From assembly GCA_027621335.1 (NCBI GenBank), contig JAQCAN010000001.1, positions 1-31,356 of the forward strand: a DNA stretch of 31,356 nucleotides, given 5' to 3'. A model generated the notes under the pieces. That model ran no database searches. It was not told the DNA's origin and was given only the letters and a program-made list of their open reading frames with translations. This document shows positions 4,009 through 30,198 of this stretch, piece after piece; position 1 is the stretch's first letter; every line of letters begins with the position of its first letter. This stretch comes from Bacteroidota bacterium. Its GTDB lineage: Bacteria > Bacteroidota > Bacteroidia > Flavobacteriales_D > JABDKJ01. The translations under genes were made by a program, and so were the position numbers.

Positions 4009-4009
4009 A

Positions 4010-5566: not shown

Positions 5567-6906
5567 CCTATGGCTTTTGCGTTGTAATCCTCGATGTGAT
5601 TCTTTACTCGAACAATTTTATCCTGCTCGTAGAAATAATAAATGACCATAATGGCATTTATAGAGTGAGCGGCATACATGCTAAGGTAGCCATTGGAGAA
5701 TGAATCTACGAACAGAGCCAGGAGGAAGAATTGACAAGTCATAAGGAAGACGTTCTTTTTCAATGGGCCTATTTTGAGTCCAAAGAACAGTGCGAAGAGG
5801 AATTGGGAGTACAGAACAATCAACCCGATAAATCCATAGACAAAGACTTGTCCTGCTATTCCAATATCCGAGATGAAGAAGAAGCCTAGGAAATGCTGGA
5901 ATCCACCTTCCACCCATTGACCACTGACTTTGCCGCTTCCAATCCATGGATTCTTTTCAATGTACTCCAATGCAATATTCAATTCAGTCAGTCGAATGGA
6001 CTGCTCGGAAGTTGTGTTATCAACGCTGGAGACAGTGGTGAAGATATCGGAGAACATCACATAATACTTCGTATACTCTTCGGGAAAGAGCATCAACGTC
6101 AGTACAATCAGGAGAATGGCAGGAATACCGAATTTCAAGAGATTCAACACCTTGGATTTCAAACTCATCCTGAAAAGGAAGAAGGCCCCAATGGCTCCCA
6201 CAGACACAAGGATGGTCGTCCTATCTAATCTAAAGAAGACAATATAGATCAAGAACAACGCAGCATAGAGCAGGTAAATACTCTTACGCTTCATTATAGC
6301 TTTGATAGCATAGTAAATGGATCCAAAGAACATGTAAGACATATTGAAACGGAAGTATACATCACCCCCTTTCAGTTCATTCGCACCTGCTGCCCCTGTC
6401 TCCTGGAATTGAGAGGGATCCACAAGAAAAGTCATACCATAGAAAAGAATCATATTGAACCAGGCTACACTTACCCAAGCCTGCTCAACAAGTGAGATGT
6501 CGATCTCCTTATTTCTCAGCATGTTATAGACAATCAGGGCCCCGAAGATCAAGTAGAAATCACGAAAGGTTCCAATTCCATACAATAGAGGCTGCCCCCA
6601 TTCGAGATAGGCCGAGAAGCCCCCTAGGAAGGGAAGTAGAAACAACATAGAAAGTAGGAGTTCGAAGGGATTCAGTCGGAAATTACTTGTGAAGATCCGC
6701 TTAGAAACGCGATATCCGAGATAAAGGAAGATCACCCCCAGATAGATAGCTTCGAGAGCCAAATCTATAACCTGGAAAATCGTTTCCAGAAGCACCCTGA
6801 ATCCTACCAAGAAGTTGAAGAACAGGAAGATATAGTACAAGACGGCCTTGTCGAAAGTTACCTTGTAAGCTGACGCGTTCAGTCGTATAAGGTTGAAAAT
6901 CTTCAT
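5563..6906 (-). CDS. O-antigen polymerase/ligase family (Wzy-like) integral membrane protein
   Basis: About 10 or more hydrophobic segments. Late periplasmic loop SIRLTELNIALEYIEKNPWIGSG resembles Wzy_C. Located in a polysaccharide locus with Wzx. Confidence 0.75.
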   Translation of the reverse strand: MKIFNLIRLNASAYKVTFDKAVLYYIFLFFNFLVGFRVLLETIFQVIDLALEAIYLGVIFLYLGYRVSKRIFTSNFRLNPFELLLSMLFLLPFLGGFSAYLEWGQPLLYGIGTFRDFYLIFGALIVYNMLRNKEIDISLVEQAWVSVAWFNMILFYGMTFLVDPSQFQETGAAGANELKGGDVYFRFNMSYMFFGSIYYAIKAIMKRKSIYLLYAALFLIYIVFFRLDRTTILVSVGAIGAFFLFRMSLKSKVLNLLKFGIPAILLIVLTLMLFPEEYTKYYVMFSDIFTTVSSVDNTTSEQSIRLTELNIALEYIEKNPWIGSGKVSGQWVEGGFQHFLGFFFISDIGIAGQVFVYGFIGLIVLYSQFLFALFFGLKIGPLKKNVFLMTCQFFLLALFVDSFSNGYLSMYAAHSINAIMVIYYFYEQDKIVRVKNHIEDYNAKAIG

Positions 6907-6941
6907 GTCTTATTTTTCTAGATGTACTCCATTCCAGAGGT

Positions 6942-6994
6942 GTTCAGGCTGAACCATCCGTCAACCCTCCACTGAATCTTGGTTCATTTTGAAC
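6942..6994. promoter_or_regulatory. Two copies of palindrome GTTCA-N3-TGAAC, candidate tandem operator
   Basis: GTTCAggcTGAAC at 6942-6954 and GTTCAtttTGAAC at 6982-6994, exactly 40 bp apart, in the divergent intergenic region. Confidence 0.5.
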
Positions 6995-7000
6995 CGAGAG

Positions 7001-7032
7001 TAAAGCTAGGGTAACTAACGACAGTGGACAAA
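7001..7032 (-). promoter_or_regulatory. Bacteroidota sigma70-type promoter (-33 TTTG / -7 TAnnTTTG-like) for the wzy operon
   Basis: Minus strand TTTG (7032-7029), a 20-nt spacer, then TAGCTTTA (7008-7001, one mismatch). Confidence 0.5.
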
Positions 7033-7080
7033 TGAGGATTCAGCTTGTTTGAACATTAAACTGTGAGGATTAGCGGCCAC

Positions 7081-7115
7081 TTTGATTTATCCGAAAAGAA
7101 TAGAGGTTAATATTG
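7081..7115 (+). promoter_or_regulatory. Possible promoter for the sulfotransferase pair
   Basis: TTTG 7081-7084 and TAATATTG 7108-7115 (one mismatch). The spacer is 23 nt, slightly long, and the ATG lies 4 nt downstream. Confidence 0.35.
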
Positions 7116-7119
7116 CGAC

Positions 7120-8046
7120 ATGAAGGTTTCAGTGATGAATGTGGACATCTGCTTGCCTGATGTGATGATCGTTGGCGCTGCGAAAAGCGGAACGACCAGT
7201 CTCTATAGGATGCTCTCTAATCATAAGAGCATCTATTTTCCGCCTTCACAGAAGGAACCTTTCTATTTCTGCTTTCAAGGAAAGGAACCTATGGGTCTAG
7301 ATGAAGACTCCAAGAGCAGGCATATCTGGAGAACTGAGGACTACCTTTCACTCTACAAGGATTGTCCTTCTGAAGCTCTTGCAGTGGACGCTTCTACGGC
7401 CTACCTCTACAAGTTCGAGGAAAGTATTTCCCATATGGCCAAGCTTTATGGTGAAAAACTCAAGGAGGTCAAGGTCATCATTCTTCTGCGGAATCCTGTG
7501 CAGCGAGCATATTCACACTACACCTATCTGGTGAGAAATGGCTTCGAGACGCTGCCGTTCGAGGAGGCGATCAAAGTAGAGAACATCGAGGCAAGGAAGG
7601 AGAGGAGATGGGGCTTTGATTACTTGGGATATAGTTCCTACCCGGATCAGGTCAAGGCTTATATAGAGGCCTTTCCACATTGCAAGATCCTACTAACCGA
7701 GGATATGCGCGAGCCGGTCAGCTTCATGAAGGAGGTCACTGATTTCCTTGGGATTGAGCCAATGGAGGAAGTGAATGAAGTCCAAGCTAATCCTTCAGGC
7801 ATCCCTAAGAGCCGTTTCTTGGTTAACGTCCTGCGAAAGAACAAGGTGCTCAAGTCCATGGTGAACTTGCTTCCTGAAGCTCAAAAACATAGATTGCTTG
7901 ATAAGAGAGATGCCATGATGGGAAAATTGCTGGTCAAAGAATCGATGGATGCAGGCGTACGTGAGGACCTCGTAAGATATTTCGAATCGGACATCTTATT
8001 TCTGCAAAAGCTCATTGAAAGAGATCTGTCATCTTGGTTGAAATGA
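7120..8046 (+). CDS. PAPS-dependent sulfotransferase (HS-sulfotransferase-like)
   Basis: PDVMIVGAAKSGTTSLY...KEPFYF and LRNPVQRAYSHY. Confidence 0.92.
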   Translation: MKVSVMNVDICLPDVMIVGAAKSGTTSLYRMLSNHKSIYFPPSQKEPFYFCFQGKEPMGLDEDSKSRHIWRTEDYLSLYKDCPSEALAVDASTAYLYKFEESISHMAKLYGEKLKEVKVIILLRNPVQRAYSHYTYLVRNGFETLPFEEAIKVENIEARKERRWGFDYLGYSSYPDQVKAYIEAFPHCKILLTEDMREPVSFMKEVTDFLGIEPMEEVNEVQANPSGIPKSRFLVNVLRKNKVLKSMVNLLPEAQKHRLLDKRDAMMGKLLVKESMDAGVREDLVRYFESDILFLQKLIERDLSSWLK

Positions 8047-8966
8047 GCATCAGAACAGACGTGACATTACCTTCATTCCTTTTCGTAGGAACCGCTAAGG
8101 CAGGAACTACTTCTATAGAGAAGTACCTCAAGCAGCATCCTGATATCTGCATCCCAAGGAAGGAGACTTTCTATTTCTTAAAGGACATTTATCGGAACAA
8201 CCATCTCTCATATCCATTACAGCGAAGGAGAGATGAATACATTTTGAACAAGGAGGTCTATGAGGAAGAGTATGCTGGAATAGAGGCAATGGTCACAGGG
8301 GAAGTAGGAACGGGATACCTCTTTCATCATGAGCTGGCCATCCCTAGAATCAAAGAGACCTTAGGGGATGATGTCAAGATTCTGATGGTACTGCGACATC
8401 CTGTGGATAGATGCTACAGTTCCTATCTTCATTTCGCCAAGGACCTCCATGAGAAAGGCACCTTCGAGGAAGTCTTGGATAGCGAAGAAAAGCGTTTCAA
8501 AGAAGGGTGGGATTTCATGTGGCAGCACAGGTTGATGGGGCTCTATGCGAAACAAGTGGAGGCCTATCTAGGAGCTTTCAAAGAGGTGAAAGTCCTGTTC
8601 TATGAGGACTTTAGGAGAGCACCGGATGTCTTCATGAAGGAGGTGTTCGAATTCATTGACGTGAATCCGAATATCAATCTTGATCTAGCCAAGACTCATA
8701 ATGCATCTGGTACACCCAAGAACGAAACTCTGCAGCGTTTCATCACACAAGAGACTTTTCTAAAAAGGCTCGTCAGGCCCCTTTTTCGATTAGTTTTCTC
8801 TAAGGATAGAAGGGAGAAGATACGTAAGGAGGCCAAAGGGAGGAACCTGAAGAAGAGCGAAGGACTCAGTGCAGAACAACGGTCAAAACTGATGTCTTTT
8901 TATAGTGATGATATCGCTGAATTGAGTGCTCTTATCGGGCGTCCATTGACTGAAATCTGGAACTAG
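8043..8966 (+). CDS. PAPS-dependent sulfotransferase (HS-sulfotransferase-like)
   Basis: PSFLFVGTAKAGTTS...QHP...KETFYF and LRHPVDRCYSSY. Start set to ATG 8043 (ATGA overlap with the upstream stop). Confidence 0.92.
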   Translation: MSIRTDVTLPSFLFVGTAKAGTTSIEKYLKQHPDICIPRKETFYFLKDIYRNNHLSYPLQRRRDEYILNKEVYEEEYAGIEAMVTGEVGTGYLFHHELAIPRIKETLGDDVKILMVLRHPVDRCYSSYLHFAKDLHEKGTFEEVLDSEEKRFKEGWDFMWQHRLMGLYAKQVEAYLGAFKEVKVLFYEDFRRAPDVFMKEVFEFIDVNPNINLDLAKTHNASGTPKNETLQRFITQETFLKRLVRPLFRLVFSKDRREKIRKEAKGRNLKKSEGLSAEQRSKLMSFYSDDIAELSALIGRPLTEIWN

Positions 8967-15719: not shown

Positions 15720-18700
15720 TTAACGCACTATAGTGACCATTCCTTGAAAAAGGCGTTTATCCACTGAATTCTTCAGTTTCACCTCCATGCGCCAGGTGTA
15801 GACGCCATCTCGAGTGAAGTAGTCCGAGCCATTGGCTCCCTCTCCTGACCACTTTCCATTGAGTTCAGCAGTCTCCCAGACCAGGCTACCCATGCGGTCA
15901 TAGATCTGGAAGAGGTACTCCTCCTCACTGGCACCCGTGATACGCGGATAGAAATAATCATTGACACGGTCATTGTCCGGAGTGAAAGCATCTGGCACGA
16001 AGACTGCCAATTCACCTTGGACTTTGATTGACTGGCAAAGGGTATCTGTACACCCTTCCTCTGTCGTGACCACTTGACAGACATTCCAGAACTCAGTGGT
16101 CTCCTGTTCTGGGAAGAAGAGGGATGGGCTGGCATTCTGAGAGAAGAGGATGCTATCCAGATACCATTCGTAGGCTACGGCATTCTGCGATAGATCGATA
16201 AATGTCACGATGTTCTCGATGCTGGTAGGTTCAAAGGGAGAATAAGTGAAATCAGCCAGAGGTGCACCATTGATGGTAATGAGTCCTGGATACTCTGTTT
16301 CACTGCCGCATCCTTGTTGTGTGGTCACGGAGAGGGACACGTCATAGATCCCGGTATCGGTGAATACATAGGTGAGTGCCTGACACCCTTGAATGGTGTC
16401 CAATCCGATGATCCAGGTACAATCCTCTCCAACTTGAGACAGAGTTGGTTCTGTGTCGAGGAGGACTTCCGTCTGTCCACAGAGGACAGAGGAGCCGTTG
16501 CCCAGTTCCACCACCGGGTTCTGGAAGACATTGATGGCGATGAATTGGGAATAGGGGAAGGCACAGGCATCTGTGTATATTAATTCAAGGCTCTGGGTCT
16601 GACTAGGCGTCAAGGTGATGCTCGCTCCTTGAATCAAATCACCTCCATCAACCCAGGTGAATCCATAAGGGCCTCCAGCCCCTCCTTCGGCTGAAACGGT
16701 CACTGTGATACTTTCTCCAATGCACAAAGAGGTGTCCAAGGGGAGATCTAATTGAGGGGCTTCGATGAATCCGATCAGGGCGGTGCCAGCCCCAGAGTTC
16801 TGACAATCTGCGTCAGTGACCAATGCGATGGAATAGAGTCCAGCTTCAGAGACTGTTATGGTCGTATCCCCTGATACGGCATTGAAGGTACTGAAGGGAA
16901 GGCCATCCAGTGTGATGGAAGCGGAGAAAGGAGGTGTGCCTACAAAGTCGATCTGAATATCGGTATCAGTGCCTTGACAGATGACCGCATCTCCGGATAG
17001 CGTGGCTAATGGAAGGCTGTTCTGGGTCAGGCTGATCTCATCAGCTATCGGGGCAGAGCAATTCGCATCAGCTATTCCAATAAGTTGGAAGGTTCCTGGT
17101 TCATTAACTTGGATAAGAGCAGGAGAGGCTAGGGCAGTTTCTTGAAGGGCTGTCCCATTATTGATACTGTATTCCAGGGTCCAAGGTCCCTGCCCTATCA
17201 GATCCAATTGAACGGTTCCTACATCGCCTTCACAAAAGGCGATGTCCCCATTCAAGCTGGCCTCAGGAAGAGCCGCCTCTGTCACATCGATGAAGCCGAA
17301 GACCACGCCTTGGCAAGTACCTTGGCTCAGCGAGACCAAGGAAACAAAGCCCGCCTCATCGATCAAGAGCTGAGCCTCTGGACCAGTCACCGTGATGCTC
17401 TCTTGGACCGTTCCGTTCAGCGCATAGGTGAGGTCATAAGTTTCGTTATCACTGAGTAATACGGGAACGTTGGCCGATCCTCCGGGGCAGATCTGAACAT
17501 CCTCGATGAGTGTAGCAGTGGGAGTTGGACTTTGAGTAACTTGGAAAAGTGGACCTATGAATGATGAACACACTTGATCATCAACAGTGAAGATCTGGTA
17601 AAGTCCTGGCTCATCTACGTTCAATGAGAATGGACTCACATCGGCTGTGAAGGTCACGATGTTCCCAAAGTCGATGAAATATTGAACTGTCCAAGGCCCA
17701 GTGCCAGTGAACTCGAATTCCAAGTCCACATTCTCTCCAAGACAGAACTCGAAATCTGGACCATTTGTCAGAGCGATCGTGGGTTCAGGAAGGGCATTCA
17801 CCAACGCTTGCCCACTCACAGTGCCGATACAGGAACCTGAGCTGACACTTATCAATTCATACAATCCAGGTCCTGGGACATCCAAGGAAGAGAAGTTATT
17901 CGGCACTTGAATTGGCGCTTGTACCACCCCATCGATGGAATAAGTAAGGGTAAAAGGCCCTTGACCTATGATGTCCAGATCTAAAGGAGGAAGGGTTCCG
18001 TCATTGAGACAATAGTCCCCACCTCCACTCAGCGTGGCCACGGGAGCCGTCACTTCTTCCACAAGGACAGTTCCGTCACCTATCCCTGTGCAGAATCCAT
18101 CCACTACTCCTGTGAGTTCATACAGACCAGGTACATCGGCCACCAGGATGTAGGGATTATCGCTGGTTATGATGTCTGGTTGAGGCAGTCCATCCAGGGT
18201 ATAGGAGATGATCCAGGGCGAGGTGCCCACCAAATCGATGACAATATCAGCACTACCACCCAAACAGAAAGCCAGATCCCCGAAACATGATGCGGTAGGC
18301 CCCGGGATCTGATTCACATCGAATTCGATATCAATGGGAATGCTGCAATTGGAATCTTCAAGATTGGTGAGTGTGATAATGGCGCTTTGGTCCAAAAAGA
18401 ATGTGAAGGGACTGCTTGGAATGGAGATATTGCCTTGTGGGATGCCATTCAAGAGGAAACCCAAGAGCCAAGGCCCTGTGCCAGTTAGTTCCAAGACAAT
18501 CTCGGACTGTTCCCCAAGGCAGAAATCAGAGGCACTGACGACCGTTACAGCAGGTGAATTGACGGAAGGGATATTGAAGTCTTGTTCATAAAGACATCCA
18601 TCGGCCGCTTCCACCTCAACAGTGTAATCACCTGGACATAGAGCACCAAAATCGATTTGTCCCGTTGCGCTCAGCCCATCCACAAGAATGGTTCCATTCT

Positions 18701-19256
18701 GGATGAGGGTCTGAGTAATGGGCAGCCCTGGTCCATTGAAGTTTAGACTCGCATTTCCATTACAGAGGCTGCAAGCACTCGGGATGGTAGAATCCAACAC
18801 CAAGGTCGCTGAGCATGGCTCAGGCTCACCACAATAGATGACGCCTTCAAATCCATCAGAGGTGACAATACTCCCTGTACTGAAATTTATGGTCAGACAA
18901 GGCCCAGTGGAGGTCACAGTGAATATCTGCGTTCCATCGAACGGGGACCCTGGAAAAGGTGTGGAAGAGGTCGTAGGGCCATCGAATATGAAGATTTGAT
19001 CGAAATTCTCCTCTGTGTCGATGGTGAAATCTATAGAAAGAGGCTCTCCAGGTGAGGAAGAACAGAAGGTGACTACATAATCCTCATCATTCAGGTAGTC
19101 CCCATTGGGCCCTCCTGAATCATAAAAAGTGCCTGAACAAGTTACAATGCCATTGCCATCAATACCATCATCCAAGATATAGACCTGTGACAGCAAGGAT
19201 GAACTGATTAGGAAGAAGACCGAGGAAAGAAAAATGGGAAAATATACTCTGTTCAA
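15720..19256 (-). CDS. Large T9SS cargo/adhesin: signal peptide, CUB-like domain, SprB-like module, 7 Ig-like repeats, PKD-like domains, type-B (gliding-motility-associated) C-terminal domain
   Basis: CUB-like CSGTFYDSGG...YVVTFC. C-terminal VFVPDAFTPDNDRVNDYF...QIYDRMG..VW...W.G...DGVYTW...GMVTIVR. TTG start downstream of TACCTTTG. Confidence 0.88.
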   Translation of the reverse strand: MNRVYFPIFLSSVFFLISSSLLSQVYILDDGIDGNGIVTCSGTFYDSGGPNGDYLNDEDYVVTFCSSSPGEPLSIDFTIDTEENFDQIFIFDGPTTSSTPFPGSPFDGTQIFTVTSTGPCLTINFSTGSIVTSDGFEGVIYCGEPEPCSATLVLDSTIPSACSLCNGNASLNFNGPGLPITQTLIQNGTILVDGLSATGQIDFGALCPGDYTVEVEAADGCLYEQDFNIPSVNSPAVTVVSASDFCLGEQSEIVLELTGTGPWLLGFLLNGIPQGNISIPSSPFTFFLDQSAIITLTNLEDSNCSIPIDIEFDVNQIPGPTASCFGDLAFCLGGSADIVIDLVGTSPWIISYTLDGLPQPDIITSDNPYILVADVPGLYELTGVVDGFCTGIGDGTVLVEEVTAPVATLSGGGDYCLNDGTLPPLDLDIIGQGPFTLTYSIDGVVQAPIQVPNNFSSLDVPGPGLYELISVSSGSCIGTVSGQALVNALPEPTIALTNGPDFEFCLGENVDLEFEFTGTGPWTVQYFIDFGNIVTFTADVSPFSLNVDEPGLYQIFTVDDQVCSSFIGPLFQVTQSPTPTATLIEDVQICPGGSANVPVLLSDNETYDLTYALNGTVQESITVTGPEAQLLIDEAGFVSLVSLSQGTCQGVVFGFIDVTEAALPEASLNGDIAFCEGDVGTVQLDLIGQGPWTLEYSINNGTALQETALASPALIQVNEPGTFQLIGIADANCSAPIADEISLTQNSLPLATLSGDAVICQGTDTDIQIDFVGTPPFSASITLDGLPFSTFNAVSGDTTITVSEAGLYSIALVTDADCQNSGAGTALIGFIEAPQLDLPLDTSLCIGESITVTVSAEGGAGGPYGFTWVDGGDLIQGASITLTPSQTQSLELIYTDACAFPYSQFIAINVFQNPVVELGNGSSVLCGQTEVLLDTEPTLSQVGEDCTWIIGLDTIQGCQALTYVFTDTGIYDVSLSVTTQQGCGSETEYPGLITINGAPLADFTYSPFEPTSIENIVTFIDLSQNAVAYEWYLDSILFSQNASPSLFFPEQETTEFWNVCQVVTTEEGCTDTLCQSIKVQGELAVFVPDAFTPDNDRVNDYFYPRITGASEEEYLFQIYDRMGSLVWETAELNGKWSGEGANGSDYFTRDGVYTWRMEVKLKNSVDKRLFQGMVTIVR
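16761..18557 (-). repeat. Seven tandem 85-87 aa Ig-like repeats, each with a conserved Cys pair
   Basis: aa 234-832. Consensus P.AtL.gd..fC.G....i.l.l.G.gPw.l.Y.idG......sp..l.v..pG.y.l..v.D..C. Diverged at the DNA level. Confidence 0.85.
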
Positions 19257-20202: not shown

Positions 20203-20709
20203 TCACCCTGTGATGCCCAACTTGGTCTTCACCATTTGAGAGACATCTTGTCCATTCTGGAAGACCACCGCTCCAGAACCTAGGTCGAAGATGTATACGA
20301 ATCCATTCTCGGTCCCTACTTCGTCAATGGCTCTTTGAAGCTTTTCCAACATAGGCTGCACCAAGGCTTCTTCCTCGGCGACCAAGTCATTCTGTGCATT
20401 GTTCCTGAATTCCTGAATGCGTTTCTCCAGTTCTATGATTTCACCACGCATATCTTCCACGGTGGACTGAGGGGTATCCTCGGTCAACGCTTGGAAGGCT
20501 TGGATCTTAGTCTGATACTCAGTGGTGAGTACGCCTAGACGATCTTCTAACTGCTTGCTCATAGCTGTGATCTTAGCCTCAGCATCAGCGCGTTCGGGCA
20601 TCAACATGAGCAGCTCTTGTGTATTCACATGACCGAATTTCATTTGGTCTTGTGCGAATGTACTCAGGCTCAAGCCCAGCACTGCGATTACGAGTAGTAC
20701 CTTTTTCAT
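20203..20709 (-). CDS. skp: OmpH/Skp periplasmic chaperone (second copy)
   Basis: Signal peptide MKKVLLVIAV...AQ, KFGHVNTQELL, coiled-coil body, and C-terminal FVYIFD...DVSQMVKTKLG. Start moved to ATG 20709. Confidence 0.9.
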   Translation of the reverse strand: MKKVLLVIAVLGLSLSTFAQDQMKFGHVNTQELLMLMPERADAEAKITAMSKQLEDRLGVLTTEYQTKIQAFQALTEDTPQSTVEDMRGEIIELEKRIQEFRNNAQNDLVAEEEALVQPMLEKLQRAIDEVGTENGFVYIFDLGSGAVVFQNGQDVSQMVKTKLGITG

Positions 20710-20740
20710 TGTTTGATTCACTATGTTGTTTGTCTAATAA

Positions 20741-21370
20741 TTATTTGCCTCGAGTGCCACCGACTGAGCTTCCTCCATCTTGTGGAGTGGATTCTTTGAC
20801 CGGTGCGGAACCACCATCTGTATCCTCACTCTCTTGGTTGTTCTCTCCTGGGCGAATGCCCATCTTCCTGAGGACTTTATCGCTCTTGTCATACTTGGGA
20901 TTGGCATAGAGCACACCGGCTTCCCCTGATTTATCGAAGATGGCCTCATAGCCATTCTCGTTGGCATATTCCCTTATGGCTACGAATATCTTCTCTTGGA
21001 CAGGCTGTATCAATTCTTGACGCTTCTTGAAGAGGTCGCCTTCTACTCCGAACCTCTGCTTCTGAAGGTTTTTGGCCTCCGTCTCCTTACGGACGATCTC
21101 TTCTTCTCGTTTCTGCCTCATTTCTTCAGTCAGGAGGACCGCCTCTGCCTGATAGCTCTTATAAAGTCTTTCTATGGAGGCATAACGCTCTTCTATCTCT
21201 TTTTGCCATTCAGCAGAGGCGCTGTTCAATTCGTTCTGGGCCTGACTGTAATCCGGCATATTTTCCAAGATGTACTTTGTGTCCACAAAAGCGAATTTCA
21301 TCTGAGCTTTCGCTTCCGATGACGCCATTAGAAGAGCGAATACGAAGGCGGTTCTGAATAAGGTTTTCAT
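20741..21370 (-). CDS. skp: OmpH/Skp periplasmic chaperone (first copy)
   Basis: KFAFVDTKYILENMPDY, KRFGVEGDLFKKRQELIQPVQEKI and YEAIFDK...YDKSDKVL. Start at ATG 21370 or 21379; the track start overlaps bamA. Confidence 0.9.
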   Translation of the reverse strand: MKTLFRTAFVFALLMASSEAKAQMKFAFVDTKYILENMPDYSQAQNELNSASAEWQKEIEERYASIERLYKSYQAEAVLLTEEMRQKREEEIVRKETEAKNLQKQRFGVEGDLFKKRQELIQPVQEKIFVAIREYANENGYEAIFDKSGEAGVLYANPKYDKSDKVLRKMGIRPGENNQESEDTDGGSAPVKESTPQDGGSSVGGTRGK

Positions 21371-21401
21371 AGCATTCATGGGGCTAAGGTAAGTCATTGG
21401 A

Positions 21402-23927
21402 TCACAGTTCTCCAAGATTCATGCCAATGGTGAAGTGGAATTGTCCGCGCGGCATGGTCGGGTTGGTTTCCACGTCATCGAAGCGCCAACCGTAGTCCAG
21501 ACCCATCAGTCCGAACATAGGTAGGAAGATTCGAAGTCCAACTCCAGCAGACCGTTTCACTGCGAAAGGTTGGTAATTGACGAAGTCATCCCAGGTATTT
21601 CCAGCCTCCAAGAAAGTCAAGCCATAGATGGTCGCATTCGGATTCGGAGAGACCAGATATCGCAATTCCATAGTGTACTTATTGATGAAGGTCGCTCCAG
21701 TGCGTGGGGATAGCGAAAGGTCATCATAACCCCTTAAGGCAATGATCTCACGTCCATCTAACTGGAATCCTGTCAAGGCCGATCCGCCCAGATAGAACCG
21801 TTCGAAAGGTGAGTCTCCGATTCCTTTATCAAAATTACCGAGGTAGCCCAGTCCCACCTTGGTGAAGAGGACTAACCTGTTATTCTCTTCTTCATCTTGT
21901 TTACCAAGTGGCGTGTACCACTCGGTGGTGAATTTCCATTTATGGTATTCAGCCCAAAGGAACTTCTCTTGGTCGCTCAATCCTGAGTAGTCCTTGTCAT
22001 TGTCCCACCAGTGCCGCACCGCGATAGGAGTGATTCGTGTTGTGAGTCCCACCTTGCTTCCACCTGAAGGAAAGATGGGGTTGCCAGCTCTGGAGTCCCT
22101 TACCAATGAGGCCGTAATGGCCAAGTTGTTGGAATATCCGTCAGCGAAGGTGAAGATGGATCCGAAATTCGTCAGGTCATAATACTGATAGCTCAGCGTG
22201 GTGTATAGCTGGAACCAGTCGTCTGGAATTTGGAGTCTTTTTCCGAAACCGATGGATCCACCCAAAATCTGCAATTGCTGGCGCGAAGGATTATTGATCT
22301 CCCCTTGATCGGTCACGATGGTGCGTTGAGCCCCATTGCTCTGTACAGAATACTGGGCAGAAACGGAAAAGGAATTAGGCCTCCGGCCTCCCAGCCAAGG
22401 CTCCACAAAGGACATGGAGTAAGCTTGGAAGAACTGTCCATTGGTCTGTGCCCTCACACTCAACTTCTGTCCATCTCCTTTGGGGACGGGGCGCCAAGCT
22501 CCTTTGCTGAACACGTTACGCATGGAGAAGTTATTGAAGCTAACTCCAAAGGTTCCTACTACGCGGCCAGCTCCCCAACCTCCTTGGAGTTCTATCTGGT
22601 CGGATGGTTTTTCTTCAACTTGGTACTCGATATCTACGGTTCCATTAACGGGGTCCTGCTTAGGATTCACTCCAAATCCCTCTGGGTTGAAATATCCGAG
22701 CTGAGCTAATTCTCTTTGGGTTCGGATGATGTCCGATCGGCTGAACAGGTCACCGGGGCGCGTGCGGATCTCACGCATGATGACGTGGTCGTTGGTGATG
22801 GTATTCCCTTCCACGGTCACGCTGCTGATTCGATACTGTTTGCCTTCATAGATCCTCACCTCGATATCTATGGTGTCATTGAAGACCTTGATCTCCACAG
22901 GGTTGGCGCTGAAGGAGAGATACCCATTGTCCAAGTAGAGTGAACTCACGTCATCTCCATTCTGGCTCATGAAGAGTCGTTCCTCCAACTTCACCCGGTT
23001 GTATACTTCTCCCTTAGAGATGCCAAGTCGGTTGGCCAATATGTCGGTCTTATACTTTGTGTTGCCGAGCCAGGTGATGTCTCCGAAGTAGAACTGATTA
23101 CCTTCCTTGATGGCGATATCGATGCCCACGAGGCTACCATTCACCCTATACACGCTGTCTTTGCTGATTTTCGAATTCCTATACCCCTTCTCGTTGTATT
23201 TCGCCACGATGCGCTCGACATCTTCCTCAAAGTCTTTTTCTAGATACTTCGATCGTTTGAAGACATGATAGAAGGCTTTCTCCTTCGTATTCTTCATGAA
23301 ACGCTTCAGCTTCTTATCTGAAAAGGCCGTGTTCCCTTGGAAGTTGATAGCCTGTACCTTCACCTTCTCGTATTTCTTCACGTAGATGTCCAAGGTGACA
23401 CTGTTCAGCATCAGGGTGTCTTTGGATTCCTTGATGTCCACTGTGGTGTTCAGGTAGCCCTTATTGACAAAGTAATTCTTCACAGTATTGGCCGTATTCG
23501 TCTTCAGGTTCTCATTGACGATCTTTCCTCTGACCAAGCTCACTTCATCTCTCAGATTGTCATCTTCTGACTTGGTGGTGCCGTAGAACTTGAACTTTCC
23601 GAGGCGATTGCGTTCTTCTACTTCTATGACCAAGAAAATGGTCTCTCCGCGGATGTCGGCCACTCCGATCTCTACATCGGCAAAGAGGGATTGGTCCCAG
23701 AGGTTCTTGATGGCCTTCGGCAGACGTTCACCAGGTACAGTGATGCGGTCTCCTTCCTTCAATCCTGCATATAGCTTTATGGCCTGTACATCAGTGGTCA
23801 CAGCGCCTATGACAGTGATGCCACCTATGGTGTAGTCCTTGGGACGACTCAGGTCGAACTGCGCCTGAAGGGGCAGTTGACAGATGAACAGGCATAGAAG
23901 GGGGAGTAGGAAAGTAAGACGTTTCAA
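21402..23927 (-). CDS. bamA: Outer membrane protein assembly factor BamA (Omp85)
   Basis: N-terminal POTRA-type repeats (GNTAFSDKKL, GNTITNDHVIMRE, RTQRELAQLGYF), VEEKPSDQI, barrel with IIALRGY (VRGF-equivalent) and FLEAGNTW. TTG start overlaps the uppS stop. Confidence 0.95.
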   Translation of the reverse strand: MKRLTFLLPLLCLFICQLPLQAQFDLSRPKDYTIGGITVIGAVTTDVQAIKLYAGLKEGDRITVPGERLPKAIKNLWDQSLFADVEIGVADIRGETIFLVIEVEERNRLGKFKFYGTTKSEDDNLRDEVSLVRGKIVNENLKTNTANTVKNYFVNKGYLNTTVDIKESKDTLMLNSVTLDIYVKKYEKVKVQAINFQGNTAFSDKKLKRFMKNTKEKAFYHVFKRSKYLEKDFEEDVERIVAKYNEKGYRNSKISKDSVYRVNGSLVGIDIAIKEGNQFYFGDITWLGNTKYKTDILANRLGISKGEVYNRVKLEERLFMSQNGDDVSSLYLDNGYLSFSANPVEIKVFNDTIDIEVRIYEGKQYRISSVTVEGNTITNDHVIMREIRTRPGDLFSRSDIIRTQRELAQLGYFNPEGFGVNPKQDPVNGTVDIEYQVEEKPSDQIELQGGWGAGRVVGTFGVSFNNFSMRNVFSKGAWRPVPKGDGQKLSVRAQTNGQFFQAYSMSFVEPWLGGRRPNSFSVSAQYSVQSNGAQRTIVTDQGEINNPSRQQLQILGGSIGFGKRLQIPDDWFQLYTTLSYQYYDLTNFGSIFTFADGYSNNLAITASLVRDSRAGNPIFPSGGSKVGLTTRITPIAVRHWWDNDKDYSGLSDQEKFLWAEYHKWKFTTEWYTPLGKQDEEENNRLVLFTKVGLGYLGNFDKGIGDSPFERFYLGGSALTGFQLDGREIIALRGYDDLSLSPRTGATFINKYTMELRYLVSPNPNATIYGLTFLEAGNTWDDFVNYQPFAVKRSAGVGLRIFLPMFGLMGLDYGWRFDDVETNPTMPRGQFHFTIGMNLGEL

Positions 23928-24667
23928 TGGGTTTTGATTTGCTCGGAGACCTTTCCGAATCTGCGTTCTCTATTCTGATATTCTAAGATAGCCTCTCTGA
24001 AGTTCTCCTTGCGGAAGTCAGGCCAATTAACTGGACTGAAATACAATTCTGCATAGGCGATCTGCCAAAGCAGGAAATTGCTGATGCGCTGCTCACCACT
24101 CGTTCTGATGAGCAGCTCTGGATCGGGGATACCGGCCGTACTTAGAGAAGAAGAGATGCTTTCAGCGGTGATATCCTCCGGCTCCATCCGACCTTCTTTG
24201 ACGGCCTGGGCTATTTTCTTCATGCCGGCCACAAGTTCCCAGCGGGCGCTGTAACTCAGAGCCAAGATGAGGGTGATGCGGTCGTTCTTACTTGTTTGTT
24301 CAATACCTTCTTTCAAGGCCAGTTGGCACTGCTCAGGAAGGCTTTCCAGATCCCCGATGGCCATAAGGCGCACGCTGTTGTCGTTCAGGTCATTGACCTC
24401 ATTGAGGATGGTGTCAACCAAGAGGTTCATAAGAGCTTCCACCTCTTCCTTCGGGCGGTTCCAATTTTCGGTACTGAAAGCATAAAGGGTCAAGTATTTG
24501 ACACCAAGTTCAGTGGCGGCCTTCAAGGCTTCCCTGACCGATTCCACACCATTCATATGGCCGTAGATTCTCACCTGCCCTTGGTCTTTGGCCCAACGGC
24601 CGTTGCCATCCATTATGACGGCTACGTGCTCAGGTATGTTTTCTAGGTCTATGTCCATCTGTGTCAT
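23924..24667 (-). CDS. uppS: Undecaprenyl diphosphate synthase (cis-prenyltransferase)
   Basis: HVAVIMDGNGRWA, YAFSTENWNRP, LALSYSAR and PELLIRTSGEQRISNFLLWQIAYAE. Confidence 0.97.
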   Translation of the reverse strand: MTQMDIDLENIPEHVAVIMDGNGRWAKDQGQVRIYGHMNGVESVREALKAATELGVKYLTLYAFSTENWNRPKEEVEALMNLLVDTILNEVNDLNDNSVRLMAIGDLESLPEQCQLALKEGIEQTSKNDRITLILALSYSARWELVAGMKKIAQAVKEGRMEPEDITAESISSSLSTAGIPDPELLIRTSGEQRISNFLLWQIAYAELYFSPVNWPDFRKENFREAILEYQNRERRFGKVSEQIKTH

Positions 24668-24698
24668 TAGGCCATGCCGAATCAGCTTGGCTAAACAG

Positions 24699-24706
24699 CA
24701 AAGGTA
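24699..24706 (-). promoter_or_regulatory. -7 promoter element TACCTTTG (internal promoter for uppS-bamA-skp)
   Basis: Exact consensus in the 54-bp gap between porG and uppS. Confidence 0.55.
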
Positions 24707-24721
24707 TTCAATCCTTACTTG

Positions 24722-25558
24722 CTATCTCCAACATCCATTGCTGTCCTTTCCGAGTCGGACAGTAAGGATGAGACCAGTATAAATGTAGTAATCACGGGTT
24801 TCGGGATCCCCCCGTTGCATACCAGTATTCACGCCTCCAGGTCCTACCGGTACAATGGTCCTGTCTGCCAATGTCCTTCCAAGGTCCCCGGATTGTTGTC
24901 GGATGAGGTCGGGGTCAGCATAGAAACCACTTACATCATCAAGGTAGTCTGTAAAGGTTCGTCTGATACCCCATTCTATGTTCAAGGCCAGGCGGTCAGA
25001 AAATCCAGCCTTTACACCTAGCCCTATCGGAATGGCCACTTGACCTTTCTTATAGGGTTTAGGGCCATTGGCCGATCCTTGACCTTCCGTGCCCAGAGGG
25101 ATTAATTCGAAGTAGTTCCCGTCCAATTCTGACTCGGGATTGAAGTTGAAATAGGCTAGCCCACCGAAAATGTAGGGAGTGAATCCTTGTCCAATGCGAC
25201 CAAGACGGTAATCATAGAAATTGATCTCGAGGATAACTGAAGCTTCAGTCAGGTCCGTCCTGAAATTCAAATTCCTGTTCACCAGATCCGCTTGTGTATT
25301 ATCTGAATCGAAAGCCTCCAGTTCCATTCGCATCAATTGGAAACGCAATGCGTGACGTTGTGTCATATTGTAACGGTACATAGCCCCGAAGGCCAGTTTC
25401 TTCCGTTCCCCGAAATGAGTGTCTGGATTGATATCTCCGATGTAATAGCTATACCCTATTGTGACTCCCAGCTCTGCATAGGGGTCCACAGGGCGCTGAG
25501 CATGGCTCTGAATGGCCATGGACCATGAGATGAAAGTTATAAGGAAGTAGCGCTGCAT
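24722..25558 (-). CDS. porG: DUF6089/PorG-type outer membrane beta-barrel (T9SS-associated)
   Basis: SYYIGDIN, RNLNF, TPYIFGGLAYFNFNP, LGTEGQG and TFTDYLDD; sits directly upstream of uppS-bamA-skp-skp, as porG does in Porphyromonas. Start moved to ATG 25558. Confidence 0.7.
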   Translation of the reverse strand: MQRYFLITFISWSMAIQSHAQRPVDPYAELGVTIGYSYYIGDINPDTHFGERKKLAFGAMYRYNMTQRHALRFQLMRMELEAFDSDNTQADLVNRNLNFRTDLTEASVILEINFYDYRLGRIGQGFTPYIFGGLAYFNFNPESELDGNYFELIPLGTEGQGSANGPKPYKKGQVAIPIGLGVKAGFSDRLALNIEWGIRRTFTDYLDDVSGFYADPDLIRQQSGDLGRTLADRTIVPVGPGGVNTGMQRGDPETRDYYIYTGLILTVRLGKDSNGCWR

Positions 25559-25566
25559 CTTGTTTA

Positions 25567-25648
25567 CAAAGGTAAACAAGGGTAATTATTGCTTTTACCA
25601 TTCGGTGGTTACTTTCTCTAGATCCCTAAGTGGGAGTCTTTACCTTTG
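25567..25648. promoter_or_regulatory. Back-to-back -7 elements TACCTTTG: minus 25567-25574 (porG) and plus 25641-25648 (purK)
   Basis: Two exact consensus matches pointing away from each other, 8 and 5 nt before the respective ATGs. Confidence 0.65.
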
Positions 25649-25653
25649 GCCCC

Positions 25654-26790
25654 ATGAGAAAAGTGGCCGTACTTGGAGGTGGGCAATTAGGCATGATGAT
25701 GCAAGAAGCCTCCGCGAATCTTCCTTTGGAACTCCATTTCCTAGACCCTGATTCCCAGTGTTCGGTCGCTTCACTGACCCCTCATCTCGTGGAGGGCTCC
25801 TTCACTGATGAAAGCACTGTGATGGACTTCTGTAGGGATATGGACCTCATCACCGTGGAAATCGAACATGTGAACCTCAATGCCCTACATACCTTGGTCG
25901 CAATGGGAAAGGAAGTCTATCCACAACCCACTATCTTGGATACGATCATAGATAAGGGCCTGCAGAAAGAATTCTTCGATTCGCATGGCTTCCCGACTGC
26001 GCCCTATGAGCTCTTGAATTCGGGACATGAAGCGCTGGAAAGAGGATGGATTCCTCCATTTGTGCTCAAGTCAAGAACTGGCGGTTATGATGGAAAAGGC
26101 GTCCAGATCATAAGGAATGAGGAAGACATGGCTAGAGCATTTCAAGGACCTTGCGTCATAGAGGCCATGGCTCCCATCCAAAAGGAACTAGCAGTCATTG
26201 CCTCACGTGATGTGCATGGCAAGGTGAGCACCTTTCCCTTAGTTGAAATGGATTTCGATCCCGATTTGAACCTGGTCAGGGCCTTATTCAGTCCGGCACA
26301 GGTCAGTAAAGAGATTTCTCAAGCGGCTAAGTCCATTGCAAAGCGTTTGGTAGAGGAATGGGAACTGGTCGGGAATCTGGCTGTGGAGTTCTTCTTGAAT
26401 GAGAATGGGAGCCTCTGGGTCAATGAAGTGGCACCCCGACCGCACAATAGTGGACATCACACTATTGAGGCCAACGAAACTTCTCAGTTCGAGCAGCACC
26501 TGAGAGCCATTGCGGGACTAGGGCTTGGGTCCACAGCGCTGAAACGGCCAGCGGCCATGGTGAATATATTGGGGGCCCCTGGTCATTCAGGAAAGGCCAT
26601 CTTACGGCATAAAGAGCTTTTGAAGGGTGATAAGGAGGTCTTCCTTCACGAGTATCATAAATCAGAGACACGCCCTGGACGCAAGATGGCTCACCTCACC
26701 GTGTGTGCTGACAGCTCCGAGGCCGCTTTGAAAAAGGCTTTGGAATTAGGGGCTGAATTGAGCTATGAGGCCGAGTCCAGCTCATCATAA
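25654..26790 (+). CDS. purK: N5-carboxyaminoimidazole ribonucleotide synthase (ATP-grasp)
   Basis: VAVLGGGQLG, ITVEIEHV, DKGLQK, GGYDGKG, NEVAPRPHNSGHHT, SQFEQHLRAI and GRKMAH. Start moved to ATG 25654. Confidence 0.96.
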   Translation: MRKVAVLGGGQLGMMMQEASANLPLELHFLDPDSQCSVASLTPHLVEGSFTDESTVMDFCRDMDLITVEIEHVNLNALHTLVAMGKEVYPQPTILDTIIDKGLQKEFFDSHGFPTAPYELLNSGHEALERGWIPPFVLKSRTGGYDGKGVQIIRNEEDMARAFQGPCVIEAMAPIQKELAVIASRDVHGKVSTFPLVEMDFDPDLNLVRALFSPAQVSKEISQAAKSIAKRLVEEWELVGNLAVEFFLNENGSLWVNEVAPRPHNSGHHTIEANETSQFEQHLRAIAGLGLGSTALKRPAAMVNILGAPGHSGKAILRHKELLKGDKEVFLHEYHKSETRPGRKMAHLTVCADSSEAALKKALELGAELSYEAESSSS

Positions 26791-26808
26791 TTCTTACATT
26801 TACCCTGT

Positions 26809-27291
26809 ATGTCAGTAGAGGTTGGAATCATCATGGGCAGCGCAAGTGACCTTCCGGTCATGCAGGAAGCAGCCAAGGTATTGGAGGAGCTACAAGTGGC
26901 TACCCGAATGGAAGTAATTTCGGCCCATAGAACCCCAGAACTCATGTTCGACTATGCGAAGCATGCCCGTGAGAACGGTCTGAAAGTCATCATCGCTGGG
27001 GCTGGCGGAGCAGCACATCTACCAGGGATGGTCGCCAGTTCGACTACTCTTCCAGTAATAGGCGTTCCTGTGAAAAGCAGCAATTCAATAGATGGATGGG
27101 ACTCCATCCTCAGCATCTTGCAGATGCCTTCCGGGGTGCCCGTGGCCACGGTGGCATTGAACGGGGCTAGGAATGCTGGAATATTGGCGGCACAAATCCT
27201 ATCCACCTCCGATGGAGCATTGGCTGCGCGATTGGACAAGTTCAAGGCGGACCTGACCAAGAAGGTCATGGACTCAAGAAAAACCATCTGA
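26809..27291 (+). CDS. purE: N5-CAIR mutase
   Basis: [30 protein letters not shown] and [11 protein letters not shown]. Confidence 0.97.
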
Positions 27292-27293
27292 AA

Positions 27294-28124
27294 ATGAGAC
27301 GGGCTCTAGCTATTTCCATTGTTCTATTGCTTGCTGCTCAAGCCGCACGCGCAGGAGGGGAGAAGAGCTCTATCGGACCTCGGTCCATGGCGCTTGGAGG
27401 GACCTATCTGGTGAATCAGGATATCTGGGCTGCATTCAACAATCAGGCGGGGCTCTTAGGCCTCCAAGGAACGCAAGCTGGGGTGTATTATCACAGCCTT
27501 TTCTTCGTGGACGGATTAGGAGAACAAGGCCTCGTTCTCAGCTCAGAGCTTGGAAATGGCCGTGTGGCCATCAACCTCAATTCCTTCGGTTTGAGTACTT
27601 TCAAGGACGAACGCTATGGTTTGGCCTATGCTATGCGCCTTTCAGACGTACTCGACATGGGTATTCAACTGAATTATCACTCCACACGGGTCCAAGGAGA
27701 CCGTTACGGAAACCGCTCTTCCTTGACAACGGAAATCGGACTTATCGCCCATCTCTCTGATGACCTGGACCTAGGGGTCCATCTCTTCAATCCTTCTCAG
27801 ACTTTGCTCAGCGAATATGAGGATGAACGCATACCGACTGTTCTAGGGCTCGGTGGGGCGTACGATTTCTCGGATAAACTGAAGGTCTTAATGGATTTTA
27901 ACAAAGACATAGACCGTCCGATGCAAGTGGGATCTGGCATCGAGTATCAGGTTTCTGAGGGCATTTATCTGCGCGGGGGAGTATCCACGGCACCGACTTT
28001 CAGCAGTTTCGGTGCGGGCTTCAATATCGCTGGGGTGGACATCGATATCGCTGCGGCCTATCATAACACCTTAGGTTACAGTTCACAGATCAGCTTGAGC
28101 TATAATTTCAATGCTCAGAATTGA
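27294..28124 (+). CDS. PorV/PorQ/FadL-superfamily outer membrane beta-barrel of unknown function
   Basis: Signal peptide, GPRSMALGG and AAFNNQAGL (similar to the PorV GARS.GMG and NPAGL motifs), then alternating amphipathic strands ending SLSYNF. Confidence 0.65.
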   Translation: MRRALAISIVLLLAAQAARAGGEKSSIGPRSMALGGTYLVNQDIWAAFNNQAGLLGLQGTQAGVYYHSLFFVDGLGEQGLVLSSELGNGRVAINLNSFGLSTFKDERYGLAYAMRLSDVLDMGIQLNYHSTRVQGDRYGNRSSLTTEIGLIAHLSDDLDLGVHLFNPSQTLLSEYEDERIPTVLGLGGAYDFSDKLKVLMDFNKDIDRPMQVGSGIEYQVSEGIYLRGGVSTAPTFSSFGAGFNIAGVDIDIAAAYHNTLGYSSQISLSYNFNAQN

Positions 28125-30198
28125 GCGGTATAGCATTCTCCTTGTCTCACTGATCGTCACCTTCAGTGCCTACTCCCAGACCGATGAAGAAAGGGATATC
28201 ATAGAACGGAGCATCGAGTTCATTGCAGAAGGAGCCGACAACGAGGACTTGGACTACACCACCCTCATCGATGACCTCACCTATTTTCTGGAACGACCCT
28301 TAGACCTCAACCGAGCCAGTTCCGATGAGCTCTCGGCCATTCGTTTGCTCAGCGATATAGAGATTCAGGCTATAATCAGACATAGAGAAGAGTACGGGGC
28401 TTTCATCAGTGTTGAAGAACTTCAGTCCATATCCAATCTCTCCGTAGCTTCCATCAGGCGTATACTTCCCTTTATCAGAGTCAAAGGAAACGTGGATGAT
28501 TTGAAGATCAGCCGAAAGGAGATCTGGAATAACTCGAATCAGGAACTCTTCATGAGAACAGATCGAGTGTTGGAGGAAAGGGACGGTTATCGGACTGCTA
28601 CTGCAGCTGAACTGGAGGATAATCCCAATTCCAGGTACCTTGGAAGCCCTTGGCGATATTACATGCGCTATCGATTCCGCTACCAGAACAAGATCAGCAT
28701 TGGATTCACTGCTGAGAAAGATGGGGGTGAGGAGTTCTTTCAGGGAAGTCAGAAGAATGGTTTCGATTTCTACTCAGCTCATGCCTTTATCGCTGGATTT
28801 GGAAAAGTTGAAAAGCTAGCCATCGGTGACTATCAAGCCCTGATGGGTCAAGGCTTGGTGTTATGGAGTGGATTGGGATTCGGGAAGTCCATGGATCTTC
28901 TCACTCTGAAACGCAATCCAAGAGGTATCACACCATATCGATCGGTCAATGAGAACCTCTTCTTCAGAGGAGCGGCCGTCACCTTGAGGCAGGACCGCTT
29001 CAGGCTCACCTTGCTCTACTCCGACCATGACCGTGATGGGAATGTGCTTACGGGCGATACCTTGGACCGTGAGGAGGCTTTGGCTTTTTCCTCGCTCCAA
29101 CTCTCAGGTTTCCATCGCACTCCTAGGGAGTTGGAGGATCGCAAGAGTGTGAATGAGAAGGTGGCCGCGGCCGAGCTGACCTGGAGAAAAGGGGGCTTGA
29201 GTATAGGAGCAAGAGGGATGAGGTTCCAGTATTCAAAGGCACTGGACAGGGACCTAAGACCCTATTCTAGATTTGCATTCGAAGGCGATAGAGGTGGGGC
29301 CGTAGGATTGGATTATGACTACGTCAAGTCCAACTTGAATCTTTTCGGAGAGATCGCGAGGTCAGAGAATGGCGGCATCGCATACCTGAATGGAGCGTAT
29401 CTGGTCATGGACCCAAAGGTCACTTTTGCAGCCTTCCATAGGGGATTCGACCGGAATTTCCAGAATCCGTATGCCTTGGCGGTCGCTGAATCCAGTACAC
29501 CGATCAATGAGAACGGACTGCTCATGGGAATCATGACCCGTCCGGCTCCGCGCTGGCAGGTGGCCGCTTGGCTGGACCGCTTCCGGTTCCCTTGGCTACG
29601 TTTCAATTCAGATGCTCCTTCCCAAGGGTGGGAAATGATGAGCCAAGTGAGCTATAAGCCAAATAGATCCTCTGAATTCTATGTCCGCTATCGCCATCGG
29701 GAACGTCCACGCAATTCGGCCGAAGAGACTATTATCGATATCGCAGGTCAGACCATGCAGAACAACCTTCGCCTGAACCTGAATTATAGCGTATCTGAAT
29801 CCATGAGCATGCGAAGTCGAATCGAATGGACGGATTATGCAAGGGAAGGGACCGACAGACAGGAAGGTATCATGCTCTATCATGATGTCATCTACAGACC
29901 GAAGAGTTCACCCTTCGACTTCAGCATGCGCTATGTCATCTTCGATACAGATGGATATGATTCCAGGCTCTATGCCTTTGAGCAGGACGTTTTGTATTTC
30001 TACAGCATACCGGCCTTGAGTGGAACTGGTTCGCGGTATTACATCGTTGGTCGCTATACCCTGAAGAAGGGAGTGGATTTCTGGGTCAAATGGTCACGTT
30101 GGCACTACCTAGACAGGGACGTTATCAGCTCAGGCTTGGACGAGATCCAAGGACCCATCCGCTCGGATATCCGAATGCAGTTGAGGCTGCAGTTCTAA
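28111..30198 (+). CDS. ComEA-like helix-hairpin-helix domain fused to a large C-terminal outer membrane beta-barrel
   Basis: Signal peptide; aa 63-124 PLDLNRAS.DEL..I..LS...IQAIIRHREEYGAFISVEELQSI; Y/R/F-rich amphipathic strands ending QLRLQF; 14-bp overlap with the upstream barrel gene. Confidence 0.75.
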   Translation: MLRIERYSILLVSLIVTFSAYSQTDEERDIIERSIEFIAEGADNEDLDYTTLIDDLTYFLERPLDLNRASSDELSAIRLLSDIEIQAIIRHREEYGAFISVEELQSISNLSVASIRRILPFIRVKGNVDDLKISRKEIWNNSNQELFMRTDRVLEERDGYRTATAAELEDNPNSRYLGSPWRYYMRYRFRYQNKISIGFTAEKDGGEEFFQGSQKNGFDFYSAHAFIAGFGKVEKLAIGDYQALMGQGLVLWSGLGFGKSMDLLTLKRNPRGITPYRSVNENLFFRGAAVTLRQDRFRLTLLYSDHDRDGNVLTGDTLDREEALAFSSLQLSGFHRTPRELEDRKSVNEKVAAAELTWRKGGLSIGARGMRFQYSKALDRDLRPYSRFAFEGDRGGAVGLDYDYVKSNLNLFGEIARSENGGIAYLNGAYLVMDPKVTFAAFHRGFDRNFQNPYALAVAESSTPINENGLLMGIMTRPAPRWQVAAWLDRFRFPWLRFNSDAPSQGWEMMSQVSYKPNRSSEFYVRYRHRERPRNSAEETIIDIAGQTMQNNLRLNLNYSVSESMSMRSRIEWTDYAREGTDRQEGIMLYHDVIYRPKSSPFDFSMRYVIFDTDGYDSRLYAFEQDVLYFYSIPALSGTGSRYYIVGRYTLKKGVDFWVKWSRWHYLDRDVISSGLDEIQGPIRSDIRMQLRLQF

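Follow-up and report, generated by a model that had tools for sequence, protein, structure and literature searches.

A widespread pair of outer-membrane barrel genes in Bacteroidota, one fused to a degenerate helix-hairpin-helix domain, as a candidate polyanion channel

By which route does DNA cross the outer membrane of Bacteroidota? For Porphyromonas gingivalis this step is called unclear by the authors of PMC11532111 (Discussion). The question is raised again by a stretch of 31,356 nucleotides from a Bacteroidota bacterium (assembly GCA_027621335.1, contig JAQCAN010000001.1, positions 1 to 31,356), hereafter referred to as the window. ComEC was found in 317/321 genomes of the host's class (two unpublished genomes included), yet the host genome (2.38 Mb, 85.5% complete) shows no match to a pilus ATPase or a secretin. 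The window carries two open reading frames (ORFs) on the + strand with an overlap of 14 nt, a small-barrel gene of 276 aa (27294-28124, designated S) and a large-barrel gene of 695 aa (28111-30198, designated L). A preliminary description had taken both for outer-membrane proteins and proposed L as a DNA conduit with a tethered ratchet, S being its partner. The analysis described here indicates that S-L is a real and widespread two-barrel module that is apparently undescribed; no account of the pair was found in the literature searched, in which subscription papers were mostly outside reach, and the supplements of PMC12478041 and PMC12578637 (one file unreadable) gave no match for helix-hairpin-helix or ComEA.

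How far the pair extends was examined with the barrel region of L alone, which retrieved 6,054 clusters at 50% identity. This search detected L in 246 of 300 genomes of the phylum. A further 14 came from profile searches of the 54 genomes left blank, for a total of 260/300; several of these 14 were themselves in the profile, having been noticed before as partial matches or as ORFs with a helix-hairpin-helix (HhH) next to S. Outside the host's class L was present in 221/226 genomes. Within the class, 34 of 35 L-blank genomes stayed blank on re-search and one contained a broken remnant; the blanks include all 22 genomes of one family (f5) and all three of another (f7), possibly Flavobacteriaceae and Weeksellaceae, and L is non-essential in several families. 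In a sample spread over families L was found in 71/80 genomes, and in WOR-3 in 55/61, paralogues included. Named carriers include Sphingobacterium phlebotomi, Chitinophagaceae, Bacteroidales, WOR-3 records and Bacteroides thetaiotaomicron (KAB4461730.1 cluster). The small barrel follows the same distribution, a strong S match being present in 19/25 L-positive vs 1/24 L-negative genomes of the host's class. Of the 207 loci in which 1 kb or more of sequence is available upstream of L, 160 have S within 1.2 kb upstream (leaving aside the 14 loci of a paralogue and 11 that are duplicate or short), so that the pairing is not due to chance. The two genes stay together in most Bacteroidota and also in some related phyla.

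Irregular forms of the pair were also encountered. A broken remnant of L is all that is left in genome G254, which has a DUF5689 system (L221:4381-4965, L250), L is split in two in G407 (L306), and a strong S gene is kept in G078 (L076:5580-6506), in which no L was found. In a record titled Comamonadaceae (L161), the barrel lies next to efp and genes of lpxD/lpxA type, which is the setting of Flavobacteriales loci, and this record is probably a mis-binned contig.

The product of S gave no Pfam match at an expect value (E) of 0.01 and no match in a PDB sequence search. Against the NCBIfam model PorV_fam, residues 27-272 scored 55.9 bits (E 5e-15), below the cut-off of 90, and the score against PorVQ2 was 17.6 (cut-off 325); S did not reach the family cut-offs for orthology with PorV, PorQ or BamG. 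The AlphaFold2 model of S shows 14 strands and an N-terminal hatch, with a predicted local distance difference test score (pLDDT) of 94.7. Upon structural comparison this model resembled FadL, TodX and PorV (Z 28-32, root mean square deviation [rmsd] 2.0-2.5, about 250 aligned residues) and BamG (Z 26), and on this basis S is assigned to the FadL/PorV structural superfamily. Its mature length is about 256 aa, vs 345-406 residues in the small chains of the solved SprA-PorV and BamA-BamG complexes.

L begins with a likely Sec signal peptide (residues 1-22; 28111-28176, +), assigned by eye from the sequence, and the Gln that follows is conserved at 90% or more. The AlphaFold2 model (pLDDT 90.7, predicted template modelling score 0.86) consists of two helices, an HhH2 domain and 24 long strands, the predicted barrel occupying 28537-30195 (+). 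Because the strands are joined by short turns alternating with long loops, the N-terminal domains are predicted to lie on the periplasmic side. The terminal residue is Phe, and the barrel region contains 10.3% Arg and 5.9% Tyr vs 3.9% and 3.8% in 13 other proteins of the window. The terminal Phe and the Arg/Tyr-rich barrel had been pointed out in the preliminary description, as had the overlap of the two outer-membrane genes, and the observation is confirmed.

No relative of the L barrel was recognized in the libraries searched, either as a named family or as a solved structure. Nothing in Pfam besides the HhH domain matched L, the PDB sequence search returned only weak HhH matches, the ESM Atlas search gave clusters of the same family only, and in Foldseek the template modelling (TM) score was at most 0.40, with no solved fold prominent. 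The best structural match of the whole barrel was the FimD usher (Z 15.0, rmsd 5.2, 357 aligned residues, 10% identity). Fimbrial ushers have 24 strands. The match to FimD/PapC (PDB 3ohn, 7lhh) is, however, within 2 Z of porins and TonB receptors at 8-10% identity; L has no usher match in Pfam, NCBIfam or PDB sequences, and no pilin or chaperone is found among the annotated neighbours.

The predicted fold of L was examined by coevolution analysis of 591 sequences (effective number of sequences, 476). Because 47 of the 49 strand-strand pairs among the top 100 join adjacent strands, the predicted strand order is supported, and closure contacts link the first and last loops. A conserved loop, L3, with a GQGL motif (28846-28962, +) is predicted to be folded into the lumen against strands 9-16: 13 of its 15 pairs among the top 200 reach these strands or their loops. 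L3 thus appears to behave as an infolded constriction loop, by which the lumen would be partly filled. In several Bacteroidales members of the family (L087, L110, L134, L160), the loop that follows strand 7 is shorter by about 40 profile positions.

Do the two barrels form one complex? Co-folding of S with L gave interface scores (ipSAE) of 0.74, 0.73 and 0.74 in three runs vs 0.00 for the best of three controls, with 100% contact agreement between the runs and a partner pLDDT of at least 85. The mark set for ipSAE is reached by 116/157 solved and 2/215 mismatched pairs, counts that are only rough for the alignments used here. S and L are accordingly predicted to bind each other side by side, with strands 18-23 of L as the interface, and the small barrel, put forward earlier as a partner of the large one, gains in this role from both the prediction and the conservation of the unit. 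Part of the score could stem from resemblance to SprA-PorV or BamA-BamG.

The HhH domain is the element from which a DNA function was originally proposed. PF12836 (HHH_3) matches residues 63-123 of L (28297-28479, +) with 38.7 bits vs a cut-off of 27, within one codon of the range first given, and the hairpins read IRLLS and ISNLS, neither of which has GxG, as had been noticed at the outset. In hairpin 1, L79-L80-S81, followed by I83 and E84, stand in place of GxG and a basic residue. The preliminary description supposed that the HhH of L itself binds incoming DNA as a ratchet tethered to the conduit. The topology of the model, in which the domain precedes strand 1 on the periplasmic side, is in agreement with such a role. 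The hairpin-1 GxG is, however, present in 0/68 barrel HhH domains vs 18/39 domains from 21 ComEA control proteins, and Lys or Arg occupies the positions equivalent to K62/K63 in only 1/34 members of the host's class. The mean net charge of the domain is -2.1 in the host's class, 0.1 in other classes and +0.8 in the ComEA controls. For ComEA of Vibrio cholerae, both K62/K63 and the GIG hairpin are described as needed and K63E as abolishing transformation (PMC3879209); the K63-equivalent residue in L is Glu. Some members of the family have no detectable HhH (L059, L080, L082). Whole-protein scores of L fall below both NCBIfam ComEA cut-offs (35.2 vs 152.35 and 25.9 vs 53.1). The host genome, moreover, encodes a separate ComEA with three HhH domains and an intact GIG. 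On the side of the ratchet, 5/34 members outside the host's class, where the charge is about zero, keep the hairpin-2 GxG, the L domain resembles the final HhH of ComEA proteins in Bacteroidota, from which GxG is likewise missing, and a three-HhH protein is reported from transposon insertion to be needed for transformation of Riemerella (PMC8459023). Taken together, a ratchet formed by L itself is improbable. In two further loci (L091:4797-5969 and L092:4830-5978, families f37 and f25), an HhH is fused to the C-terminus of S, which is there encoded away from L.

What could pass through the large barrel was considered from the distribution of charge. The lumen faces of L were assigned by hydrophobic alternation; the interface residues of strands 18-23, which point outwards, agree with this assignment. 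The predicted lumen wall opposite L3 (strands 17-24 and 1-2) carries a family net charge of +12.7 (+14 in the host L), vs -3.0 on the wall under L3 (strands 10-16), so that a predicted, conserved arginine stripe on one wall faces the loop on the other. The first 37 mature residues, an N-terminal helix pair in the model (28177-28287, +), have a family net charge of -7.8 and are negative in 98% of the 591 sequences. Of the ten best coevolving pairs between the N-terminus and the barrel, four fall on residues 221-240; because these pairs rank only 75-192, a periplasmic plug formed by the acidic helices is weakly suggested.

From these features we tentatively propose, at somewhat less than an even chance, that S-L forms a gated channel for polyanions, probably for DNA or pieces of it. 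A 14-strand S and a 24-strand L would stand side by side in the outer membrane, and through L a polyanion would reach the periplasm, DNA or fragments of it being the most probable cargo. The acidic N-terminal helices may shut the pore on its periplasmic side until cargo pushes them away. The degenerate HhH would serve as a docking module and not as a ratchet, the pulling being performed by a separate ComEA, and S may stabilize or gate L in the manner of PorV with SprA and BamG with BamA. The cargo could be used for transformation or for feeding. Of the DNA conduit first envisaged, a link to nucleic acids is indirectly supported by the lumen charge, by comEC loci and by a WOR-3 gene cassette (see below); the lumen, on the other hand, appears partly filled by the infolded loop and perhaps by the acidic N-terminus. 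Overall, the balance for and against any role of the pair in DNA handling is about even.

Alternatively, the channel may import or export another polyanion or macromolecule, such as an acidic polysaccharide, polyphosphate or a peptide, with the HhH in a structural or protein-binding role. The degenerate and acidic character of the HhH points in this direction, as do two Bacteroides-type L homologues with a precomputed match to PF21687, which we take to be the SAM-like domain of GspK of the type II secretion system. The near-universal presence of L outside the host's class, hosts not known to be competent included, is also consistent with another cargo, and AlgE is among the top Foldseek rows for L, at a TM score of 0.30 only. 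Against it, the annotated neighbours include no recurring genes of polysaccharide synthesis, the WOR-3 cassette is nucleic-acid themed, and an HhH is fused to either barrel, to L and, in the two loci mentioned above, to S. A cargo other than DNA is therefore regarded as possible, with a probability of around one third.

Linkage to competence genes was next considered. Besides its ComEA, the host genome encodes DprA, ComM and ComEC. Among 213 loci of L orthologues, comEC lies directly downstream of L on the same strand in seven. One of these, in a complete 1.3-Mb genome, contains S, L and comEC as a single same-strand run (L301:5993-8008). Two genomes of one genus (G283, G299) are without L, comEC and dprA, and the one of them tested is also without a strong S match; a 0.5-Mb genome (G360) is without L and comEC. 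As a functional test, the co-occurrence of L and comEC was set aside as uninformative because comEC is present nearly everywhere (79/80 genomes in one tally and the 317/321 given above).

A different connection was looked for with DUF5689, a domain of DdbD (PMC12478041). A strong DUF5689 gene was found in 33/35 L-negative vs 11/39 L-positive genomes in the first sample, and in 22/50 further L-positive named genomes, mostly drafts. In the host genome, the locus L220:3506-7234, containing a DdbC-like barrel end, a DUF5689 lipoprotein and a protein sorted by the type IX secretion system (T9SS) that is similar to WOR-3 OB-fold surface proteins, is likely a Ddb-type DNA-capture locus.

The WOR-3 genomes contain a paralogue of about 800 aa with two HhH domains, homologous to L (HHalign 99.9%, E 4.7e-33, 470 columns). 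Its surroundings were compared in 14 loci (L313-L326) that were picked for long contigs and are kin, not independent. S precedes the paralogue in all 14, a third barrel-like gene and a nucleotidase-like gene each follow in 13 (the latter in six long and seven short forms), a PLD/Nuc-like nuclease follows in seven, and an OB-fold surface protein precedes in seven. The cassette was counted as present in 13 of the 14. Two long nucleotidase forms were scanned and exceed the 5'-nucleotidase cut-off, and the seven short forms were assigned by similarity. One surface protein of these loci carries DUF5689 above the cut-off, and another WOR-3 surface protein shares 37% identity over 191 residues with the protein adjoining the host's DdbD-like gene. 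Some of the cassettes also contain a DHH-family gene.

A number of observations weigh against a channel for DNA. The nuclease cassette belongs to the paralogue, at about 22% identity, and not to L itself; around the shorter WOR-3 form, which is the orthologue, the annotated neighbours at six loci include nothing of the kind. In the comEC test, 206/213 loci have no competence neighbour, a count that also agrees with another cargo, and most neighbours of L are housekeeping genes; neither a comEC link nor nucleases or DNA-binding surface proteins were found beside S-L in the window. Of the seven loci with comEC, six group in a single clade (support 1.0), and the one from the complete 1.3-Mb genome has no resolved position, which leaves one or two events. 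L is intact in the draft genomes G375, G436 and G561, for which comEC gave no match. A mutual exclusion of L and DdbD was rejected as functional proof, since it was not replicated in the family-spread sample (2/9 vs 16/71), and the complementarity is therefore not counted as support. The host has its own DdbC/DdbD-like pair, and because this pair is present together with the triple-HhH ComEA, the host needs no S-L for ComEA or Ddb roles. In conservation, the residues of the predicted S-L interface do not exceed the other residues that face the lipid (p 0.20 and 0.59). Arginine-lined barrels such as AlgE also pass polyanions other than nucleic acids.

The last alternative, already raised in the preliminary description, is that the pair is an accessory of the T9SS or of the β-barrel assembly machinery (BAM). 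S has the PorV/BamG fold, porG and bamA lie 1.7-6 kb upstream in the window, and porD is divergently upstream in 16/70 loci, all from other classes, which may be inherited gene order. The porG-bamA genes are, however, divergent from the pair, with purK-purE in between. The distribution of L is decoupled from that of SprA: SprA is present in 24/24 L-negative genomes of the host's class and was not found in six L-positive ones (five of family f21, and G226), nor was the SprA family detected in B. thetaiotaomicron, the control, which has L. As L was not found in the 34 of 35 re-searched genomes mentioned above, the whole of family f5 among them, it is not a universally essential part of BAM. The T9SS alternative is unlikely, and an accessory role in either machinery receives little credence.

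How does the pair compare with known systems? The closest in concept are DdbC-DdbD of B. thetaiotaomicron and RA0C_RS04915/04920 of Riemerella anatipestifer, likewise pilus-free Bacteroidota systems with a barrel proposed to pass DNA (PMC12478041, PMC8459023). Like DdbC, the WOR-3 paralogue of L has nucleases and a DUF5689 protein as neighbours. DdbC differs in being annotated as TonB-dependent with a surface lipoprotein as partner, whereas L has 24 predicted strands, an HhH domain and a barrel partner. TonB-dependent transporters have 22 strands and a plug; L exceeds this number of strands in its model and gave no Pfam match to a TonB receptor or plug. Both systems, S-L and a DdbCD-like one, are encoded in the host genome. 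With ComEA (PF12836, TIGR00426; PDB 8dss, 8dfk, 2duy) L shares a double HhH above the Pfam cut-off and predicted to be periplasmic, but in L this domain is acidic and fused to a barrel, unlike the small soluble or inner-membrane-anchored architecture of ComEA. In SprA-PorV (PDB 6h3i, 8gl6) and BamA-BamG (PDB 9hiv; PMC12578637), a 14-strand FadL-type barrel is attached laterally to a larger barrel, as predicted for S-L; L, however, gave no match to the SprA family or to the Omp85 family.

The surroundings of the pair in the window give context only. The housekeeping genes purK-purE (25630-27291, +) precede S with a gap of 2 nt, and a convergent M28 peptidase gene lies 5 nt past the stop of L. 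In 12/60 family-spread loci purE is directly upstream of the pair. A promoter scan gave 5 sites vs 4.9 expected and the terminator scan 7 vs 4.1, none of them informative. Divergent from purK-purE is a porG-uppS-bamA-skp-skp run (20203-25579, -), a known gene arrangement of Bacteroidota, in which porG scores above the NCBIfam cut-off. A T9SS cargo of 1178 aa (15720-19256, -) has a CHU_C tail and a series of repeated immunoglobulin-like domains with matches to POM152 models. At 2036-8966, four sulfotransferases are interleaved with an O-antigen ligase-like gene, and a flippase and a WecG glycosyltransferase adjoin; this region is likely a sulfated surface-polysaccharide locus.

A broader proposal, which we hold as doubtful, is that S-L represents an ancestral DNA gate of the Fibrobacteres-Chlorobi-Bacteroidetes superphylum, free of pili and TonB receptors, in which a 24-strand arginine-lined pore would be closed by an acidic plug mimicking DNA. 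For transformation the DNA would be handed over to ComEA and ComEC, for feeding to nucleases of the periplasm, and the gate may have been replaced by DdbCD in some lineages. With S-L as a candidate, conserved as a pair and represented by an orthologue in B. thetaiotaomicron, the question of the DNA route across the outer membrane becomes testable. Even if the cargo is not DNA, S-L would be the third complex of a large barrel with a FadL-type barrel, beside SprA-PorV and BamA-BamG.

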